Source: Escherichia coli
GTDB lineage: Bacteria; Pseudomonadota; Gammaproteobacteria; Enterobacterales; Enterobacteriaceae
Strand: one strand, 5' to 3'
DNA: 64,000 nucleotides
Assembly: GCF_045037415.1 (NCBI RefSeq)
Contig: NZ_CP173438.1
Numbering within the stretch: position 1 is the first letter of the stretch; every line of letters begins with the position of its first letter. Positions 2,145 through 62,206 of this stretch are shown piece by piece. A model generated the notes under the pieces. The model did not search any database. It saw only the letters and a list, made by a program, of their open reading frames with translations, and had not been told where the DNA came from. The translations under genes were made by a program, and so were the position numbers.

Positions 2145-2766
2145 CTTTACCTGACCAGATAATTTCGCCCGTCTGCACCAGCATCAGCTGCATTTGTAGG
2201 GTCGGAGCGTTAACGTTGCCAGAGGCGCTGGAGTACAGCACGTAATGAGCGCCAACATTGCGGGCAATGCCTATGGCTTTACTACGGGTGCCTAAACTGT
2301 CCTGCGGCGACAAACCTAATTGTTGCTTAGCCATCGACAGCTGCTGGGCGGAAACCAGGGTAAATTTACCGTTATTAGCCAGCGCATTTCGCAGCGTTTC
2401 GGTCGCTTCTGCGGCATTCAACGAACCGTTAGTACGGTTGTTAACGCTATCAACCAGCAGGACGCTACCCGCAGTCACGCCATCAGCCCCAAGCATCTTA
2501 CTGACCATCGGCTGCATTGCGCCATTCCAGTCATAATGGCGAATATGCGGCGCAGGCGGTGCAGTTTGATCTTCGTGCTCAATTGGGCCTGGCTGCTGCG
2601 GTATCGTCGGCACCGATGGCACTGTGGGGACAGGCTGTTGTGGCTCGGTTGGTTGTTCCGGCGCTGGTTTCACTTCTTCTACCGGTGCAGGTTCACGTTG
2701 CCCCACACACCCGGCAAGAAACATCGCCAGCGCGGTAATCAAGGCGTAGCGACTCATTTTTGTCAT
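2125..2766 (-). CDS. lpoB: outer-membrane lipoprotein activator of PBP1B
   Basis: [24 protein letters not shown]... with lipobox LAGC and Pro/Gln-rich linker; start taken at second Met to give 213 aa (start uncertain by one codon). Confidence 0.9.
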
Positions 2767-2779
2767 CAAGATTCACCCC

Positions 2780-3157
2780 TTACAAATATAGATAAAGTCT
2801 GACTTTGTGCGCCCCCAGAAAATTGGCGCTGCCGTACAGCGTGACCGCCGAATGTGCGGGAATGGTAACGCTGCGTGGCCTTTCCAGAGGATGCATCTCC
2901 AGCCCTCTGGCGTCATACCAGTAAAAACGATAATGAACGGTAACGGGTTCTTGCCTTTCGTTATAAAGCGTTGAGGATGCTGAAGGTTGAATATCAGATG
3001 TCGAAAGGACGGGCTTTTCTGCACTGATGCCCGCAGCCAATAAAGATGACTCCATCACCAGCGATTGCTCATCATTCACCGGAATTTCCGGATGTGAACG
3101 ACAGCCCACCAGCACTAACAACGCCAGAGACACCAGCCCAAAGCATCCTTTTCTCAT
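2780..3157 (-). CDS. ycfL: lipoprotein YcfL
   Basis: 125 aa ORF MRKGCFGLVSLALLVLVGC... with lipobox; synteny between lpoB and hinT. Confidence 0.85.
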   Translation of the reverse strand: MRKGCFGLVSLALLVLVGCRSHPEIPVNDEQSLVMESSLLAAGISAEKPVLSTSDIQPSASSTLYNERQEPVTVHYRFYWYDARGLEMHPLERPRSVTIPAHSAVTLYGSANFLGAHKVRLYLYL

Positions 3158-3159
3158 CG

Positions 3160-3519
3160 TTACAGACCTTTATGCGCCAGCATTGGTCCCAGCGGACGGC
3201 CACCCAACAAGTGCATATGGATGTGGTAAACCTCTTGTCCGCCATGGCGGTTGGTGTTCATGATCAGACGATAGCCATCTTCGGCAATACCTTCTTGCTC
3301 AGCAATTTTTGCCGCTACGGTGATCATGCGTCCCAGCGCCTGCTCATGCTCAGCTGACACGTCGTTCACAGTCGGAATGAGGATATTCGGAATGATCAGA
3401 ATATGCGTTGGCGCTTGCGGCGAAATATCGCGAAACGCCGTTACCAGATCATCCTGGTAGACGATATCGGAGGGGATCTCACGACGAATAATTTTGCTGA
3501 ATATAGTTTCTTCTGCCAC
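3160..3519 (-). CDS. hinT: HIT-family purine nucleoside phosphoramidase
   Basis: ORF contains HIT motif HIHMHLLGG; ORF track begins at a TTG at 3535-3537; I place the start at GTG 3517-3519 ([16 protein letters not shown], 119 aa). Confidence 0.85.
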
Positions 3520-3730
3520 GACATTTTCCTTTTTCAAATAGCCATGCGTTGCGCCATGCTACGCCGCGCCACACTGCGAGTATAGAGTATGGTCGAGTTA
3601 AACCTGCTCTTTCAACCTTAACTCACGATTTCTTAAGCAAAAAACCGTTTTGCTGCCGTATATATCGCCATTATTCCCATTTCTGCCTGCGAATGCGCTG
3701 AAAAGACATTTTCTGTTTGGTTTACACACC

Positions 3731-3770
3731 AAATATGAATGCGTATATTTCTCATTTGCATTTACATACA
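3731..3770 (+). promoter_or_regulatory. candidate Fur operator / promoter region of fhuE
   Basis: AT-rich segment ...atgaatgcgtatatttctcatttgcatttac... about 90-120 bp upstream of the fhuE ATG; partial match to the GATAATGATAATCATTATC iron box; fhuE is a known Fur-repressed gene. Confidence 0.4.
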
Positions 3771-3852
3771 AAATTATTCGCACACTAAATATAACCGCTC
3801 ATCACCCTGCTCCGGCATGAGCCTGACGCCAACATAAACCAAGAGATTTCAA

Positions 3853-6042
3853 ATGCTTTCGACACAATTTAACAGGGATAATCAACATCAAGCCATCATC
3901 AAACCGTCACTCCTTGCCGGTTGCATAGCACTGGCACTATTACCTTCCGCCGCTTTTGCTGCACCAGCCACTGAAGAAACGGTGATTGTTGAGGGTTCAG
4001 CCACAGCCCCAGATGATGGCGAAAATGATTACAACGTAACGTCTACCTCTGCGGGTACAAAAATGCAGATGACTCAACGTGATATTCCTCAGTCGGTCAC
4101 TATTGTTAGCCAGCAGCGGATGGAAGATCAGCAGTTACAAACGCTGGGCGAAGTGATGGAAAACACGCTGGGGATCAGCAAAAGTCAGGCGGATTCCGAT
4201 CGTGCTCTTTATTATTCCCGCGGATTCCAGATCGATAACTATATGGTTGATGGTATCCCCACCTATTTTGAATCGCGCTGGAATCTGGGCGACGCACTTT
4301 CTGATATGGCACTGTTTGAACGCGTAGAAGTAGTGCGTGGCGCGACAGGCCTCATGACCGGGACGGGTAATCCATCTGCGGCAATTAATATGGTTCGAAA
4401 ACACGCGACCAGTCGTGAATTTAAAGGCGATGTCTCGGCGGAATACGGTAGCTGGAACAAAGAACGGTATGTGGCGGATTTACAAAGCCCACTCACCGAA
4501 GACGGTAAAATCCGCGCACGAATTGTCGGCGGCTACCAGAATAACGACTCATGGCTGGACCGCTACAACAGTGAAAAGACCTTCTTCTCCGGCATTGTCG
4601 ATGCTGATTTAGGCGATCTTACGATGCTTTCAGCCGGTTACGAATATCAGCGTATTGATGTTAATAGCCCAACCTGGGGCGGTTTACCGCGCTGGAATAC
4701 TGATGGCAGCAGCAACAGTTACGATCGCGCACGCAGTACCGCACCTGACTGGGCGTACAACGATAAAGAGATCAACAAGGTCTTTATGACCCTGAAGCAG
4801 CGGTTTGCTGATACCTGGCAAGCGACGCTGAATGCCACCCACTCTGAAGTCGAATTTGACAGCAAAATGATGTATGTCGATGCCTATGTAAACAAAGCGG
4901 ATGGTATGCTGGTTGGGCCATACAGTAATTATGGCCCTGGTTTTGATTATGTCGGAGGCACCGGTTGGAACAGCGGCAAACGTAAAGTTGATGCGCTGGA
5001 TCTGTTCGCTGACGGTAGTTATGAATTGTTTGGTCGTCAGCACAATTTAATGTTTGGTGGCAGTTACAGCAAACAAAACAATCGTTACTTCAGTTCATGG
5101 GCCAACATTTTCCCGGATGAAATTGGCAGTTTCTACAACTTTAATGGCAATTTCCCACAAACCGACAGGTCACCACAGAGTCTGGCGCAGGACGATACCA
5201 CACATATGAAATCGTTATATGCTGCCACTCGTGTCACCCTTGCCGATCCGCTGCATCTGATCCTCGGCGCACGTTATACCAAGTGGCGGGTTGATACGCT
5301 GACTTACAGCATGGAGAAAAACCACACCACGCCTTATGCTGGACTGGTGTTTGACATCAATGATAACTGGTCGACCTACGCCAGCTATACCTCTATTTTT
5401 CAGCCGCAAAATGATCGTGACAGTTCAGGCAAATATCTGGCACCAATCACCGGTAACAACTACGAGCTGGGTCTGAAATCGGACTGGATGAATAGCCGTC
5501 TGACCACCACGTTAGCCATCTTCCGTATTGAGCAGGATAATGTCGCTCAGTCCACCGGTACACCTATCCCCGGCAGCAACGGCGAAACCGCCTATAAAGC
5601 GGTGGATGGGACAGTCAGTAAAGGTGTGGAATTTGAACTCAACGGCGCAATTACCGACAACTGGCAGCTGACGTTTGGCGCAACGCGCTATATTGCAGAG
5701 GATAACGAAGGAAACGCCGTTAATCCTAATCTGCCACGCACCACGGTTAAAATGTTCACCAGCTATCGGTTGCCTGTCATGCCAGAGTTGACGGTCGGCG
5801 GTGGTGTTAACTGGCAAAATCGCGTGTATACCGACACCGTGACACCGTATGGCACCTTCCGCGCCGAGCAAGGTAGCTACGCGCTGGTGGATCTCTTCAC
5901 CCGCTACCAGGTGACGAAAAACTTCTCGTTACAGGGGAACGTCAATAACCTGTTCGACAAAACCTACGATACCAACGTGGAAGGTTCTATTGTCTACGGC
6001 GCACCGCGTAATTTAAGCATTACCGGCACGTATCAATTCTGA
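3853..6042 (+). CDS. fhuE: TonB-dependent outer-membrane receptor for ferric coprogen / rhodotorulic acid
   Basis: 729 aa ORF with signal peptide, TonB box-like N-terminus and C-terminal aromatic residue (…TGTYQF) typical of TonB-dependent receptors. Confidence 0.95.
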   Translation: MLSTQFNRDNQHQAIIKPSLLAGCIALALLPSAAFAAPATEETVIVEGSATAPDDGENDYNVTSTSAGTKMQMTQRDIPQSVTIVSQQRMEDQQLQTLGEVMENTLGISKSQADSDRALYYSRGFQIDNYMVDGIPTYFESRWNLGDALSDMALFERVEVVRGATGLMTGTGNPSAAINMVRKHATSREFKGDVSAEYGSWNKERYVADLQSPLTEDGKIRARIVGGYQNNDSWLDRYNSEKTFFSGIVDADLGDLTMLSAGYEYQRIDVNSPTWGGLPRWNTDGSSNSYDRARSTAPDWAYNDKEINKVFMTLKQRFADTWQATLNATHSEVEFDSKMMYVDAYVNKADGMLVGPYSNYGPGFDYVGGTGWNSGKRKVDALDLFADGSYELFGRQHNLMFGGSYSKQNNRYFSSWANIFPDEIGSFYNFNGNFPQTDRSPQSLAQDDTTHMKSLYAATRVTLADPLHLILGARYTKWRVDTLTYSMEKNHTTPYAGLVFDINDNWSTYASYTSIFQPQNDRDSSGKYLAPITGNNYELGLKSDWMNSRLTTTLAIFRIEQDNVAQSTGTPIPGSNGETAYKAVDGTVSKGVEFELNGAITDNWQLTFGATRYIAEDNEGNAVNPNLPRTTVKMFTSYRLPVMPELTVGGGVNWQNRVYTDTVTPYGTFRAEQGSYALVDLFTRYQVTKNFSLQGNVNNLFDKTYDTNVEGSIVYGAPRNLSITGTYQF

Positions 6043-7829: not shown

Positions 7830-8627
7830 TCAACGGATGGATTGAAGGCGGGAAGCATCGATGTGAAACAGACGGGCGAAGTTATCGGTGGTTACCTGCG
7901 CCAGTTCTTCAACGGCAACACCTTTCAACACAGCCATGTATTCTGCAACGTCACGAACCATCGCAGGTTGATTCTCTTTTCCTCGATGCGGTACTGGCGC
8001 AAGGTAAGGTGAGTCAGTTTCCACCAGTAACCGATCCAGGGGGACATAACGCGCAGCATCGCGCAGTTGCTCCGCATTACGGAAGGTCACAATGCCGGAA
8101 AAGGAGATGTAAAATCCGAGATCCAGTAATTTACCCGCCGTTTCTCTGTCCTCTGTAAAACAGTGTAGTACGCCACCGCAATCCGTCACTTTTTCTTCGC
8201 GCAGAATTGCCAGCGTATCGGCGCGGGCGTCACGGGTGTGGACGATAACCGGCTTGTTCAGTTCACGACCAATCTGGATATGATGGATGAAGGACTCTTG
8301 CTGACGTACTTTAGTTTCCGGCGTGTAATAATAATCCAGCCCGGTTTCACCCAGCGCTACAACGCCCTCTTCTGCCGCCAGACGACGTAAATCTTCTACA
8401 TCGTAGGGATCATTCTGGTTGAGTGGATGCACGCCACAAGAAAATACGACGTTGTCGCGTTCGCCTACCAGATCCCGCATGTGTAAATAACCCGGTAATG
8501 TTGTGGCGACTGCCAGACAAAATTTCACATCGCGTGCGGCGGCTTTCGCCAGAACGTCATCCACGTCCTTATGCAAAGATTCATAATCCAGACCATCGAG
8601 ATGGCAGTGTGAGTCGACTAAAAACAT
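7830..8627 (-). CDS. ycfH: TatD-family metal-dependent DNase
   Basis: ORF with [11 protein letters not shown]... start (ATG at 8625-8627, 265 aa); the upstream extension in the ORF track is not supported. Confidence 0.9.
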
Positions 8628-8637
8628 GATGTCTCTC

Positions 8638-9642
8638 TTAAAGATGAGGAACCGGTAGCACAACGCCCGGTTGCAGGTAATGCTCAATACGCAGTAAAAG
8701 ATCGGTGATGAGAAGCTCGCGGTTGATACCTGTGACAGACATTAACTGTTCACGAATGTGGCAAACATCCCCCAGTATAGCCTGCAGGCGCGAGGGAGAA
8801 AGATGGTTTGCCAGTTCGACGACCAGCCCCGGCACATCAACATTGGTCACGTGCGCAGCGCCATAATGGCGTTTTAGCGCATCCATCAGCAACGTTGCCA
8901 GCCAGTGTAAACGCGCCGGAGCTTGTTCATTATTAAGGGCCGCTAGCAGCGAATACCAGTCGCCCGATTGCACGCCATATGCCAGCGCCTGACACAATGT
9001 TTCACGAGCCTGCCAGTTATCTCCCTGAAACAACGCCAGTGCCGCCCCAGGCGAACCGGCGCTTAAGCGCAATGCGGCAAGTAGTGCATCCTGTGACATT
9101 GTCACTTCGCGTGAAAGCCAGGTCACGGCGTACTGTTCCGGCGGCGGCGCAAGGTAATGTAACCGACAACGACTACGTAATGTTGCCAGTAAACGTTCTG
9201 GCTCGCGGGTAGCAAGGAAAAACCACGTCTCTGCTGGTGGCTCTTCAAGCGTTTTCAGCAATGCGTTAGCCGCGGCGTCGGTTAGTAAGGCAGCATCGGT
9301 TACCCAGACAACTTTCGCACCACCTAAGCGTGCGTGCTCATTCAGCTTTTCGGTGACCTCACGTACCGCATCAATGCCCAGCGCATTTTTCCCTTTTTCG
9401 GGAGCCAGGGTGTAGTAATCGGGATGTGTGCCAGCCTGCATCAACTGACATCCACGACAGTGACCGCAACTTTTGTGGCCCTGCGGTTGTTGGCAGAGTA
9501 AATAACGGCTCAGGGCGTAGATTAAAGCATCATCGCCCATGCCCGGTAACGCCTGAATGAGTAGCGCATGGTGACCTCTTCCGGCCTGATAGCTGGCTAC
9601 CAGTTTTTCGAAATCAGGTCGTAACCATGGATACCATCTCAT
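8638..9642 (-). CDS. holB: DNA polymerase III delta-prime subunit
   Basis: [40 protein letters not shown]...; clamp-loader AAA+ fold with Cys-rich zinc module (CGHCRGC); start ATG overlaps tmk stop (ATGA). Confidence 0.95.
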
Positions 9643-10280
9643 GCGTCCAACTCCTTCACCCAATTGGTCACGGTAGTGCGGATTGCATCCATCACGGCCT
9701 CCAGCGGCTGGGTGGCATCAATGGTATGAATGCTTTTATCTTGTGCTGCCAGTTCCAGATAGCGGGCGCGGGTGCGATTAAAGAAATCGAATGACTCTTG
9801 CTCAATACGATCCAGCTCACCACGGGCGCGAGCACGTTTTAAGCCGACCTCTGGGGTGACATCAAGATAAAGCGTTAAGTCAGGGCGAAAATCCCCGAGA
9901 ACAGCATCACGCAGTGTTGCCAGCATATGTTGGTCAATACCACGTCCTCCACCCTGATAGGCTTGAGTGGAGAGATCGTGGCGATCGCCAATCACCCAGG
10001 TGCCGTTAGCCAGCGCAGGTTTGATGACCGTTTCTACCAGTTGAACGCGCGCGGCATAAAACATCAAAACTTCGGCTTTATCGGTAATGACTTCATCGCC
10101 TACCGATTTGATATCCAGCACCAGGCTTCTTAACTTTTCGGCAAGTTGCGTACCGCCAGGTTCCCGAGTGAAAACCATGTCGCGGATACCCAGTTGCTCA
10201 AGCGTCTCAACCACCACGTTACGCGCGGTAGTTTTGCCTGCGCCTTCCAGCCCCTCAATGACGATATACTTACTGCGCAT
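9639..10280 (-). CDS. tmk: thymidylate kinase
   Basis: 213 aa [21 protein letters not shown]... with P-loop. Confidence 0.97.
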
Positions 10281-11292
10281 TTTTTTCCTTAAGCACTTTC
10301 AGATAATCCTGCACAGACTTGTTATGACTGGCAAGATTGGTATTAAACGTGTGACCACCTTTACCATCGGCCACAAAATAGAGATACGGCGTTTTTGCCG
10401 GATGCGCAGCAGCCTTCAGCGAATCCGCCCCCGGCGTCGCTATCGCACCTGGCGGCAGACCGGTAATGGTATAGGTGTTATACGCTGTCGGCGTTTCCAG
10501 GTCTGCACGAGAAAGTTTGCCATTATAACGCTCTCCCATCCCGTAAATCACGGTCGGGTCGGTCTGCAGGCGCATACCAATGCGTAAACGGTTGATAAAT
10601 ACTGAGGCAACCTGATCGCGTTCACTGGCAACGGCGGTTTCTTTTTCGATAATTGATGCCATCGTCACCAACTGGTTTTTATCTTTATAAGGCAGACCGT
10701 CCGCACGCCCTTCCCAGGCGCTATCGACCGCTTTCACCATTTTCTTGTGCGCTCGTTTGAGTAACGCGACATCGGTGGTATTGGCGGTATACATCCAGGT
10801 GTCTGGCCAGAACCAACCTTCAATCCACTCCGGGTTTTCCAGTTCAAGTGCCTGCGCTACGGTGGCGTACTTATCGTCGCTCAGCGTGTGCTTGATATAC
10901 GGAGCCTCACGCAATTGCTTGAGGTAGTCGCTCAGACGCATCCCTTCTACCAGTCGCAGCGGGAACTGTGCTTCTTTACCGCTTTCCAACAATTTCAGCA
11001 TCTCGCGCACGGTCATCTGCGGTGTAAAGCGGTAAGTCCCGGCTTTAAAGTGAGAAAGATCCGGTTCGATACGCAGCAGCCATTGGAAAACCCGTGGGCG
11101 ATTGATGATCTTATCGGCATAAAGCTGTTCACCGAGCGCCAGACGTCCGGTCCCTGGCTTCAGGGTAAATATCGTCTCTTCTTTGATAAGCAATTTGCTG
11201 TCGGCAAGATGGCGAACCTTCCAGACGCCCACACCAGCGGCGATACCCAGTACCACCAGCAATAACAAGATTATCAATAACACTTTTTTCAT
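10270..11292 (-). CDS. mltG: endolytic murein transglycosylase (YceG/MltG family)
   Basis: 340 aa ORF with N-terminal transmembrane helix [20 protein letters not shown]... and YceG-like domain. Confidence 0.92.
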
Positions 11293-11294
11293 GA

Positions 11295-12104
11295 CTAATT
11301 CGGGCGCTCACAAAGTGGGGCTAAATATTCATATAACGTTGCTGACGAAAAGGAGACATCGCCACAGGCACGTACGGGCATCACTGGCATTAACGCATTA
11401 CAAATAACCATCTCATCTGCCTGCAACGCCTCTTCCAGAGAGGCTTGCACTTCGACAAGCTGATAAGAGGATTGTGCCAGCAAACGGATACAGAATTGTC
11501 GCATAATGCCGTTAACACCTGCCTGATCCAGTCGCGGCGTATAAACTACGTTGCCCTTCCGCCAGAACAAATTAGCCGCACAGCATTCCGTAACCCACCC
11601 TTCGCTGTCAAGGACCAGCGCCTCATCAGCGTTTGTCTGCTCAAGATGAGAGCGGATCAATACTTGCTCAAGCCGATTAAGATGTTTAATACCTGCAAGA
11701 TGAGGATTGCGCCCCAGCCGCACCGGGCTTAGCGCCAACGTCATCCCTTCGTTACGCAAACGGTCGTAATGTGCAGGATAAGCCGTAACGGAGAGAATCC
11801 GCGTTGCCGGTCCACTGTTCAATGTGCTGTACCCTCGCCCGCCACTACCGCGACTGATCACGACTTTCAGTACACCATTTTGCTGTTCTGCTGCCAGCGT
11901 TTTCATCTCTTGTTCAAGCTGAGGCCAGAAGTCACAGGAAATCATCAACCGCTGACAAGCATCCTGTAGTCGCTGGATATGCGCCGATAACAAACTGACT
12001 TTACCGTCGATAACTCTGGCGGTGGTAAAACAACCATCACCAAACTGCGTTGCCCGATCGCTTACTGCCAGCGATTCCTGCTTATGACCGTTAATTAAGA
12101 ACAT
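11295..12104 (-). CDS. pabC: aminodeoxychorismate lyase
   Basis: 269 aa [31 protein letters not shown]...; class IV aminotransferase fold; synteny. Confidence 0.92.
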
Positions 12105-42741: not shown

Positions 42742-42792
42742 TTATCCTTTGTGTCCGGCAAAAACATCCCTTCAGCCGGAGCATAGAGATTA

Positions 42793-51884: not shown

Positions 51885-51990
51885 TTGCCGGATGCGGCGT
51901 GAACGCCTTGCCAGACCCACAAAATCTTGCAAAATCAATAAATTGCAGGAACGATGTAGGCCTGATAAGCGTAGCGCATCAGGCAACTAC
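51885..51990. repeat. REP / BIME cluster downstream of opgH
   Basis: gccggatgcggcgtgaacgcc... and gtaggcctgataagcgtagcgcatcaggc, typical REP palindromes. Confidence 0.8.
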
Positions 51991-51994
51991 GTTT

Positions 51995-56177
<4,183 letters not shown>

Positions 56178-57624: not shown

Positions 57625-59115
57625 TTACAATAACCATTCCACGGGCAATATCGACGCCAGTTTGACCATAACCCGCTTCCAGAAACTGGTGGCGGGTTCT
57701 TTTTTGAGAATAATCTCTTTCTTTGCATGACGATCAACCCAGTTGATCCGTCCCCACCTGTCCAGACGGAGCTGCCAGGCCGCATCATACTGGCTCTGAA
57801 TAAAGCGTTTATCAATTAACTGTGCCAGCGTTTCGCTCTCTATCACGAAGCCCATTTCAGTATTGAGCAATGTTGAACGCGGATCGAAATTGAAAGAGCC
57901 AATAAACACCGTTTTACCATCGATGCTAAAGGTTTTAGCATGCAGGCTGGCACCGGAATTACCGGTTATACCGCGATCGTGTAATGTACTACTTTGTTCA
58001 CGCGTCGGCTTGAGTTCATATAATTCCACCCCATAGCGAAGCAATTTTTTGCGCCAGCGCGCGTATCCGGCATGGACGACAGCAACATCGTTAGCGGCAA
58101 GAGAATTGGTTAGGATCGCAATCTTTACCCCTTTTCTCACCATCCGTAAGAGTTGCGCCACACCTGCACGTGTCGGTACAAAATAGGAAGAGATAATATC
58201 GATGCGTTCACTGGGTGAGCCCATGATATCGAACAGGCGCTGCGGTAACAGTGAATGCCGTTTTGCCTTGCCCTCCCCTTTCGCCGGATCATCACTTAAT
58301 AAACATGTTTTCGCCCAGATAAGCGGCAACGTTCCATCAACCAGATGATGTATAAACGGACTGGATTCCATTTTGCGTAAGTAACGATGCGTCATGACAT
58401 CGTTATGCCAGGAGGCGGGTAACTCGATGTGATCCGCCATTTCACCTTCCGGGACATCCAGCACCTGCTGTAAGGGGGAAACCGATTTGCAATACCAGTA
58501 GCGGGCGAAATCATCGGCAACGTCCTCTACCACGGGTCCTATTGCCATGACATCTAAATCCGAAAAAAGTGGCTCTTCCCCTGCCCCAAAATAGGCATCA
58601 CCAATATTTCGTCCTCCCACCAGCGTCACCACGCCATCGACAGTGAAACTTTTATTGTGCATACGGCGATTGAGACGGGAAAAGTCGGTGATATAACCAA
58701 GCGGACGTAGCAAACGAAACGAGAAAGGATTAAAAAGCCGGACTTCAATGCGTGGATGGCTGTCAAGCAAGCGTAAAATGTCATCAAGTCCGGGCGTATT
58801 GTTGTCGTCCAGCAACAAACGGACGCGAACGCCACGCTTTGCTGCGGCTAACAGGGCGGAAAACAGTAACCGACCCGACATATCGTCCTGCCAGATGTAA
58901 TACTGAACATCCAGCGTATGCTCTGCCATTTCAGCCAGACGATACCGGGCGGCAAACGCATCCAGACTTTTCTCCAGAGGAAAAAGTCCACACTGACCGG
59001 GATGTTGCGAACACAGTGGCAGCACCGCGCTCGCCAGCCGAGGCAAATCATTCATCTCCTTGTTGGGTAAGGAGTCTTTCGTAGAGGTGGGCGTTTTCTT
59101 CATCATAACAGACAA
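57625..59115 (-). CDS. clsC: cardiolipin synthase C (PLD superfamily); start codon uncertain
   Basis: ORF with two HxK(x)4D-type PLD motifs (…[11 protein letters not shown]… and …HAKTFSIDG…); maximal ORF given; a start at ATG 59053-59055 ([11 protein letters not shown]...) is an alternative. Confidence 0.88.
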
Positions 59116-61454: not shown

Positions 61455-62206
61455 GTTGTCACCCTGGACCTGGTCGTACATTTAAGAAATTAAATCATTT
61501 CAACTTGGTTGTTAACGCAACCCGTATTTTGTTAACGCTGCGTTACGATGGAAAGTATGTCTGCGGAAATATTTTTAATAACTCACCCGCGCGTTGTATT
61601 TTTCTTTTTTTGTTCATACCAAAGTATTAAAACCCACGTAAATACGCTGTTATCTACGCAAAAAATATTTTGTTTTCTTTTAAATCTCCGTTTTCCGCTA
61701 TCAAAAATCACCAGACAGTCATTCTTCTTGCCCGTCGCTGATTGCTGCGATATGTCTTGCGCACAAGCCGTGACAAACCTCGTCTTTTTGCAGTAAAAAA
61801 TTGTCCACGGTGGTATGGAGAAAAAACAAGAACGTTTTACATGACGAAAGGACTACAGCGAAATATTTTTTATATGCATTATTAGTAAGTTAGCACCATT
61901 TGTATGATTTTTTAAAATTGTGCAATAAAAACCAAATGTACAACTTTTCTATCATTTCTAAACTTAATAAAACCTTAAGATTAACATTTTAATATAACGA
62001 GTTACATTTAGTTACATGTTTAACACTTGATTTAAGATTTGTAATGGCTAGATTGAAATCAGATGTAATCCATTAGTTTTATATTTTACCCATTTAGGGC
62101 TGATTTATTACTACACACAGCAGTGCAACATCTGTCAGTACTTCTGGTGCTTCTATTTTAGAGGCAGCTGTCAGGTGTGCGAACAATAAAAAAGCGGGGT
62201 TTCATC
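61455..62206. promoter_or_regulatory. csgBAC / csgDEFG divergent intergenic regulatory region
   Basis: 752 bp strongly AT-rich non-coding gap between divergent csgB and csgD; in E. coli it is known to hold the csgB and csgD promoters, many regulator binding sites and the long csgD 5' UTR. Confidence 0.85.

Follow-up and report, generated by a model that had tools for sequence, protein, structure and literature searches.

The window analysed here, a stretch of 64,000 nucleotides of Escherichia coli (contig NZ_CP173438.1, assembly GCF_045037415.1), carries on its minus strand a tightly packed gene string reading pabC-mltG-tmk-holB-ycfH, in which the end of tmk and the beginning of holB share four bases (Table 1). 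Both tmk and holB are genuine, adjacent coding genes on the same strand, scoring above the cutoffs of their NCBIfam equivalog profiles and being annotated accordingly in RefSeq. HolB aligns over its full length with its profile (residues 1-334 against profile positions 1-334) and closely matches the PDB chains 1a5t_A and 8val_E; its alignment to the latter shows about ten substitutions. The gene identities, the stop and start codons and the mltG-tmk-holB-ycfH string given in a preliminary description of this DNA agree with the NCBIfam equivalogs and with RefSeq. A consensus scan of the minus strand found no sigma-70-like promoter and no intrinsic terminator pattern between tmk and holB, regional counts of such patterns equalling the expectation from shuffled sequence; the lack of both patterns is consistent with tmk and holB lying on one transcript, and an overlap of four nucleotides would leave no room for either element.

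Table 1. Position, strand and supporting evidence of the features of the tmk-holB region and of other features of the 64,000-nt window.
Feature	Position	Strand	Evidence or remark
pabC, at the head of the gene string	11295..12104	-	NF004761 equivalog; 2 nt from mltG start
mltG (yceG), upstream of tmk	10270..11292	-	NF007619 equivalog; 11-nt overlap with tmk start (10270..10280)
tmk, dTMP kinase, 213 aa	9639..10280	-	TIGR00041 equivalog, 234.3 bits (cutoff 83.25); RefSeq
holB, DNA polymerase III subunit delta-prime, 334 aa	8638..9642	-	NF005941 equivalog, 632.5 bits (cutoff 477)
ycfH, TatD-family hydrolase, downstream of holB	7830..8627	-	NF008075 equivalog; 10-nt spacer (8628..8637) after holB stop
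ATGA stop/start overlap, 4 nt	9639..9642	-	sequence; RefSeq; conservation
holB Shine-Dalgarno AAGGAG, inside tmk Lys-Glu codons	9651..9656	-	8 nt upstream of ATG; core GGAG 9651..9654
holB codon 2, AGA (Arg)	9637..9639	-	first base is last base of tmk stop
Rejected alternative holB start TTG, in frame, 7 codons upstream	9661..9663	-	unconserved
thiK/lpoB overlap, 20 nt	2125-2144	same strand	annotation
flgJ/flgI overlap, 1 nt	28032	same strand	annotation
mdoG/mdoH overlap, 8 nt	54532-54539	same strand	annotation
clsC/ymdB overlap, 59 nt	59049-59107	same strand	annotation
RNase E 5' UTR element	20676-21012	+	Rfam, above gathering score
SraB sRNA	18647-18815	-	Rfam, above gathering score
ES056 sRNA, upstream of csgD	62061-62152	+	Rfam, above gathering score
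PyrC leader	42743-42792	+	Rfam, above gathering score
ES036 sRNA	51921-51963	+	Rfam, above gathering score

Among the 54 same-strand gene pairs of the window, tmk/holB is the only one with an overlap of four nucleotides (written -4 in the following, with gaps as positive numbers); five other same-strand pairs overlap, by 1, 8, 11, 20 and 59 nt, and sixteen are separated by gaps of 15 nt or less. The five Rfam matches in the window are all expected for this region of the E. coli genome.

Read directly from the window, positions 9639-9642 are TCAT on the plus strand and hence ATGA on the minus strand, with the tmk stop TGA at 9641..9639 and the holB start ATG, where the translation of HolB opens, at 9642..9640. 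The preliminary description had placed the shared bases at a tmk TGA (9639-9641) and a holB ATG (9640-9642); these coordinates are right as plus-strand positions, the strand having been left unstated. Over 1.7 kb the window is 100% identical to E. coli strain SK1144, whose RefSeq annotation contains the identical 4-nt overlap (holB 2539..3543 and tmk 3540..4181 of locus L001). The tetranucleotide in itself is unremarkable: ATGA occurs 534 times on both strands of the whole window, where about 500 occurrences are expected. Its fixation precisely at the stop/start of tmk and holB, by contrast, goes beyond chance.

The overlap exists only if holB begins at this codon, and a better-supported start, named earlier as the observation that would speak against it, was therefore looked for; none exists and the ATG at 9642 stands. 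Immediately after the ATG, the motif M[KR]WYPWLR is invariant in 79 sequences, whereas the upstream translation in the holB frame is unconserved, and no conserved in-frame start lies within 30 codons downstream in the same 79 sequences. The NCBIfam profile opens at the same Met, as do the delta-prime chains in the PDB (1a5t, 334 aa, and 26 other entries), which, being recombinant, show the accepted start rather than the native N-terminus. The cloning papers of 1993 reportedly included an N-terminal sequence of the purified delta-prime protein. The four shared bases are the true stop of tmk and the true start of holB.

The preliminary description had suggested looking at the conservation of the junction across Enterobacteriaceae, and this bore out its constancy. 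Scanning one genome per species yielded 80 holB loci with 65-95% HolB identity, from Escherichia, Citrobacter, Enterobacter, Klebsiella, Kosakonia, Kluyvera, Lelliottia and other genera, a sample from which Salmonella and E. coli proper are absent. All 78 loci with enough upstream sequence contain ATGA, and the -4 geometry is found in each of the 77 loci with a traceable tmk stop; neither GTGA nor TTGA occurs at the junction in any of the 78 loci, though both would preserve the start as well as the stop. Within E. coli itself, a 30-mer centred on ATGA was matched exactly over 28 nt or more in 5386 of 5426 complete genomes (99.3%). Any match of this length must span ATGA, so that the count is a lower bound for genomes with an intact junction. 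The pabC/mltG junction of the same genomes, serving as internal control, is variable (-4, +1, +2, +7, +8). The mltG/tmk junction equals the ATGA junction in rigidity, with -11 in 74 of 74 Enterobacteriaceae loci, and the spacer between holB and ycfH measures 10 nt in 72 of the 80 loci.

Two apparent exceptions were rejected. The assembly of C. koseri NCTC10786 (L021) carries a frameshift in tmk about 25 codons before the end of the gene, with the junction itself intact; read in the shifted frame, the tail of tmk still terminates ...WIKEQGA* at ATGA. In E. coli RM9245 (NZ_CP044314.1), about 880 nt of G/T-rich sequence of low complexity (L002 3239-4118, corresponding to window positions 9338-10214) stand where most of tmk and the 5' portion of holB would be; this sequence matches no other E. 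coli genome and is an assembly artefact, and RefSeq records holB there as a partial pseudogene. Five of 5424 E. coli matches to the tmk-holB region fall on records designated as plasmids, probably through mislabelling of replicons, tmk and holB being essential genes of the chromosome.

Outside the Enterobacteriaceae, eight representatives of HolB clusters (L085-L094) with 34-61% identity were examined. Seven of these have tmk immediately upstream of holB, within -4 to +5 nt, the individual junctions being -1 (TAATG), -1 (TGATG), +1, +2, +2, +5 and -4; the eighth, from a reduced genome of 1.08 Mb, has no tmk upstream of holB. Judging from these eight sequences, the deeply conserved feature appears to be the very tight juxtaposition of tmk and holB, with ATGA as the state that became fixed in Enterobacteriaceae and recurs elsewhere.

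The sequence preceding the junction is constrained as well. The GGAG core of the holB Shine-Dalgarno, at -12 to -9, shows no variation among the 78 loci. It covers two third-codon positions, both with an entropy of zero, while the remaining third positions from -45 to -3 (Trp codon excluded) range from 0.68 to 1.95 bits. At the first of the two invariant wobble positions, the G persists even though the amino acid of its codon varies (Lys, Gln, Ala, Glu, Arg); G makes up 32% of the third positions elsewhere in the same segments. The second belongs to a Glu codon that is GAG in 79 of 79 sequences, as compared to 39% GAG elsewhere in these segments. This pattern clearly points to selection on the RNA sequence beyond that on the protein. 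The predicted pairing with the 3' end of 16S rRNA amounts to -8.3 kcal/mol in the window, where it ranks in the top 4.5% of all 17-nt windows inside tmk, and to a mean of -7.1 kcal/mol across species. The junction thus has a Shine-Dalgarno inside the upstream gene at functional spacing, as is found in the -4 class of gene pairs.

A further consequence of the overlap is seen in the second codon of holB. The A of TGA is also the first base of this codon, which must therefore be ANN, and the forced leading A accounts for the rare Arg codon AGA in E. coli holB; AAA is found in 70 and AGA in 9 of 79 sequences, and relatives with a junction other than ATGA have Q, D, E, H or V as residue 2 of HolB. 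This constraint has been met in practice: recoding of AGA to CGU was described to cause a Stop214Cys change in Tmk with an extension of 14 amino acids (bioRxiv 10.1101/069385), and recomputing the TGA to TGC change in our window likewise adds 14 residues to Tmk, in agreement with Napolitano et al.

Regarding function, we infer coupling of tmk and holB, and consider termination-reinitiation assisted by the Shine-Dalgarno, probably mixed with some fresh initiation, to be the most likely mechanism and a fairly probable one. One polycistronic message, pabC-mltG-tmk-holB-ycfH, would be transcribed from the minus strand; on finishing tmk, a ribosome would terminate at UGA, the AUG of holB lying just one base further back, and the AAGGAG sequence 8 nt upstream would hold the post-termination ribosome or its 30S subunit. 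Translation of holB would in this way be tied to that of tmk through termination-reinitiation, and fresh 30S subunits loading at the same Shine-Dalgarno would probably contribute some of the product. Of five native ATGA pairs studied in E. coli, four were coupled by termination-reinitiation, and removal of the Shine-Dalgarno lowered reinitiation in four of five tested pairs (PMC6728339). Reinitiation collapses at a distance of about 20 nt (PMC10666635), and all natural tmk/holB junctions seen here, together with both engineered ones (see below), lie within the permissive distance. Our literature search found no published experiment on the coupling of tmk and holB.

The preliminary description had concluded from the overlap that translation is coupled within the gene string. 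For tmk/holB this is reasonable in view of the invariant junction, the invariant Shine-Dalgarno and the four coupled pairs out of five published ones; the overlap by itself does not imply coupling, however, as bioBF, another E. coli ATGA pair, is uncoupled (PMC6728339), which makes an ATGA overlap insufficient as proof for tmk/holB. The extension of coupling to ycfH is weaker, the 10-nt spacer between holB and ycfH belonging to a class assigned to independent initiation or other mechanisms (PMC10666635).

The strongest competing explanation is that holB is translated independently, with new 30S subunits binding the Shine-Dalgarno inside tmk and starting at the ATG regardless of whether tmk is being translated. 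The overlap would then merely be compact and mutationally easy to reach, serving no coupling function, and would be frozen because every change would damage the stop, the start or codon 2. The Shine-Dalgarno is indeed strong, invariant and unburied, no conserved occluding structure is present, and bioBF, also an ATGA pair of E. coli, sets a precedent by initiating solely de novo (PMC6728339); moreover, the exact geometry can be replaced, both in nature (-1, +1, +2, +5) and in the laboratory. Every one of these natural or engineered variants nonetheless stays at a very short distance at which reinitiation is efficient, none separating the two genes, and most of the tested ATGA pairs are coupled (PMC6728339). 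As a Shine-Dalgarno also promotes reinitiation, its conservation fails to discriminate between the two models. On balance, we regard purely independent initiation as somewhat unlikely, although it is the alternative to be taken most seriously.

A more far-reaching proposal would extend coupling upstream instead: the invariant overlaps of 11 nt (mltG/tmk) and 4 nt (tmk/holB) could form a translationally linked chain throughout the family, placing a cell-wall enzyme, a kinase for a dTTP precursor and a clamp-loader subunit on one ribosome flux, thereby coordinating growth and replication, with the AGA at codon 2 also tuning reinitiation. We consider this doubtful and put it forward as speculation.

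Coupling could alternatively operate by unfolding, a structure sequestering the ribosome-binding site of holB and being melted by ribosomes translating tmk. According to a proposal by Huber et al., a structure that blocks de novo initiation is required for strict coupling in E. coli (PMC6728339), and this also weighs against coupling by termination-reinitiation at tmk/holB, where the Shine-Dalgarno is not buried. In the E. coli window alone, the accessibility of the site is 0.25 as compared to 0.42 ± 0.11 in flank-shuffled controls, but this difference amounts to about 1.6 standard deviations, and across 79 sequences the mean accessibility is 0.445 against 0.400 in the controls, with 35 of the 79 lying below their own control. 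The consensus fold reaches -1.8 kcal/mol and places no helix over the ribosome-binding site, and the single-sequence fold of 120 nt has a z-score of -0.74 against shuffles. None of the three approaches (single-sequence fold, accessibility in 79 sequences, consensus fold) thus revealed a conserved RNA structure occluding the holB ribosome-binding site, and coupling by unfolding is very improbable.

That holB starts at a different codon, so that no stop/start overlap would exist, has a negligible probability: in E. coli, the 26 codons ahead of the ATG are free of stops in the holB frame, but the only start-like codon there is the TTG at 9663, which has no Shine-Dalgarno ahead of it and whose position is occupied by CTG (not a start) in 31, GTG in 30, ATG in 11 and TTG in 7 of 79 sequences, an in-frame stop cutting it off from the ATG in six loci, and the invariant residues after the ATG and the profile and PDB starts given above argue for the latter. 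The NTG pattern at this position reflects the tmk frame, in which N is simply the third base of the codon preceding an invariant Trp. The same open stretch (window positions 9643-9720, minus strand) makes Tmk-HolB fusion reading frames possible, and four such proteins of 538-547 aa (P0004-P0007) were encountered, each a singleton and each with a different frameshift point in the tail of tmk; natural fusion or programmed frameshifting was rejected as their explanation, indels or sequencing errors being most likely.

For annotation, our results mean that the start of holB is confirmed and that the junction is under strong constraint. For recoding, codon 2 of holB and about the last five codons of tmk should not be considered freely changeable, since these contain the stop of tmk and the Shine-Dalgarno of holB. 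Beyond correct annotation the finding matters little: the overlap of tmk and holB is confirmed as real, it is ordinary, and it is already known.

The same four bases at the same locus were described in E. coli by Napolitano et al. (2016, bioRxiv 10.1101/069385), who noted that the AGA codon of holB (nucleotide 4) overlaps the tmk stop. In that study the overlap was handled as a constraint on recoding and coupling was not measured; the solution adopted was an insertion of 3 nt carrying a stop, which reduced the overlap and left the genes tightly juxtaposed. In Pseudomonas putida, the overlap of tmk and holB was regarded as a predicted architecture of translational coupling and their adjacency as typical of gamma-proteobacteria (mBio 2023, PMC10653934). 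P. putida KT2440 differs from our locus in that its tmk is split by a genomic island, and an engineered TGATG junction with an overlap of 1 nt kept holB functional (PMC10653934).

More generally, tmk/holB resembles the -4 ATGA class (Huber et al. 2019, PMC6728339; 2023, PMC10666635) in its same-strand orientation, its shared ATGA and its normally spaced Shine-Dalgarno within the 3' end of the upstream gene. Of all configurations among the 2,987 E. coli gene pairs that share a strand, this is the commonest (PMC10666635). Subunits of heteromeric complexes are over-represented in the class. Since Tmk and HolB do not belong to a common complex, the usual stoichiometry argument for overlaps does not extend to them; a link between the supply of dTTP and the replication machinery would be a plausible rationale for their pairing. 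The three strictly coupled E. coli pairs (PMC6728339) have a predicted structure at the ribosome-binding site, whereas none is predicted at tmk/holB. The bioB/bioF pair shares with tmk/holB an ATGA overlap within a native E. coli operon and, unlike the coupled pairs, relies fully on de novo initiation (PMC6728339). If coupling of tmk and holB holds true, the pair would add one more case of the commonest coupling arrangement, mildly unusual in that its two products do not belong to the same complex.
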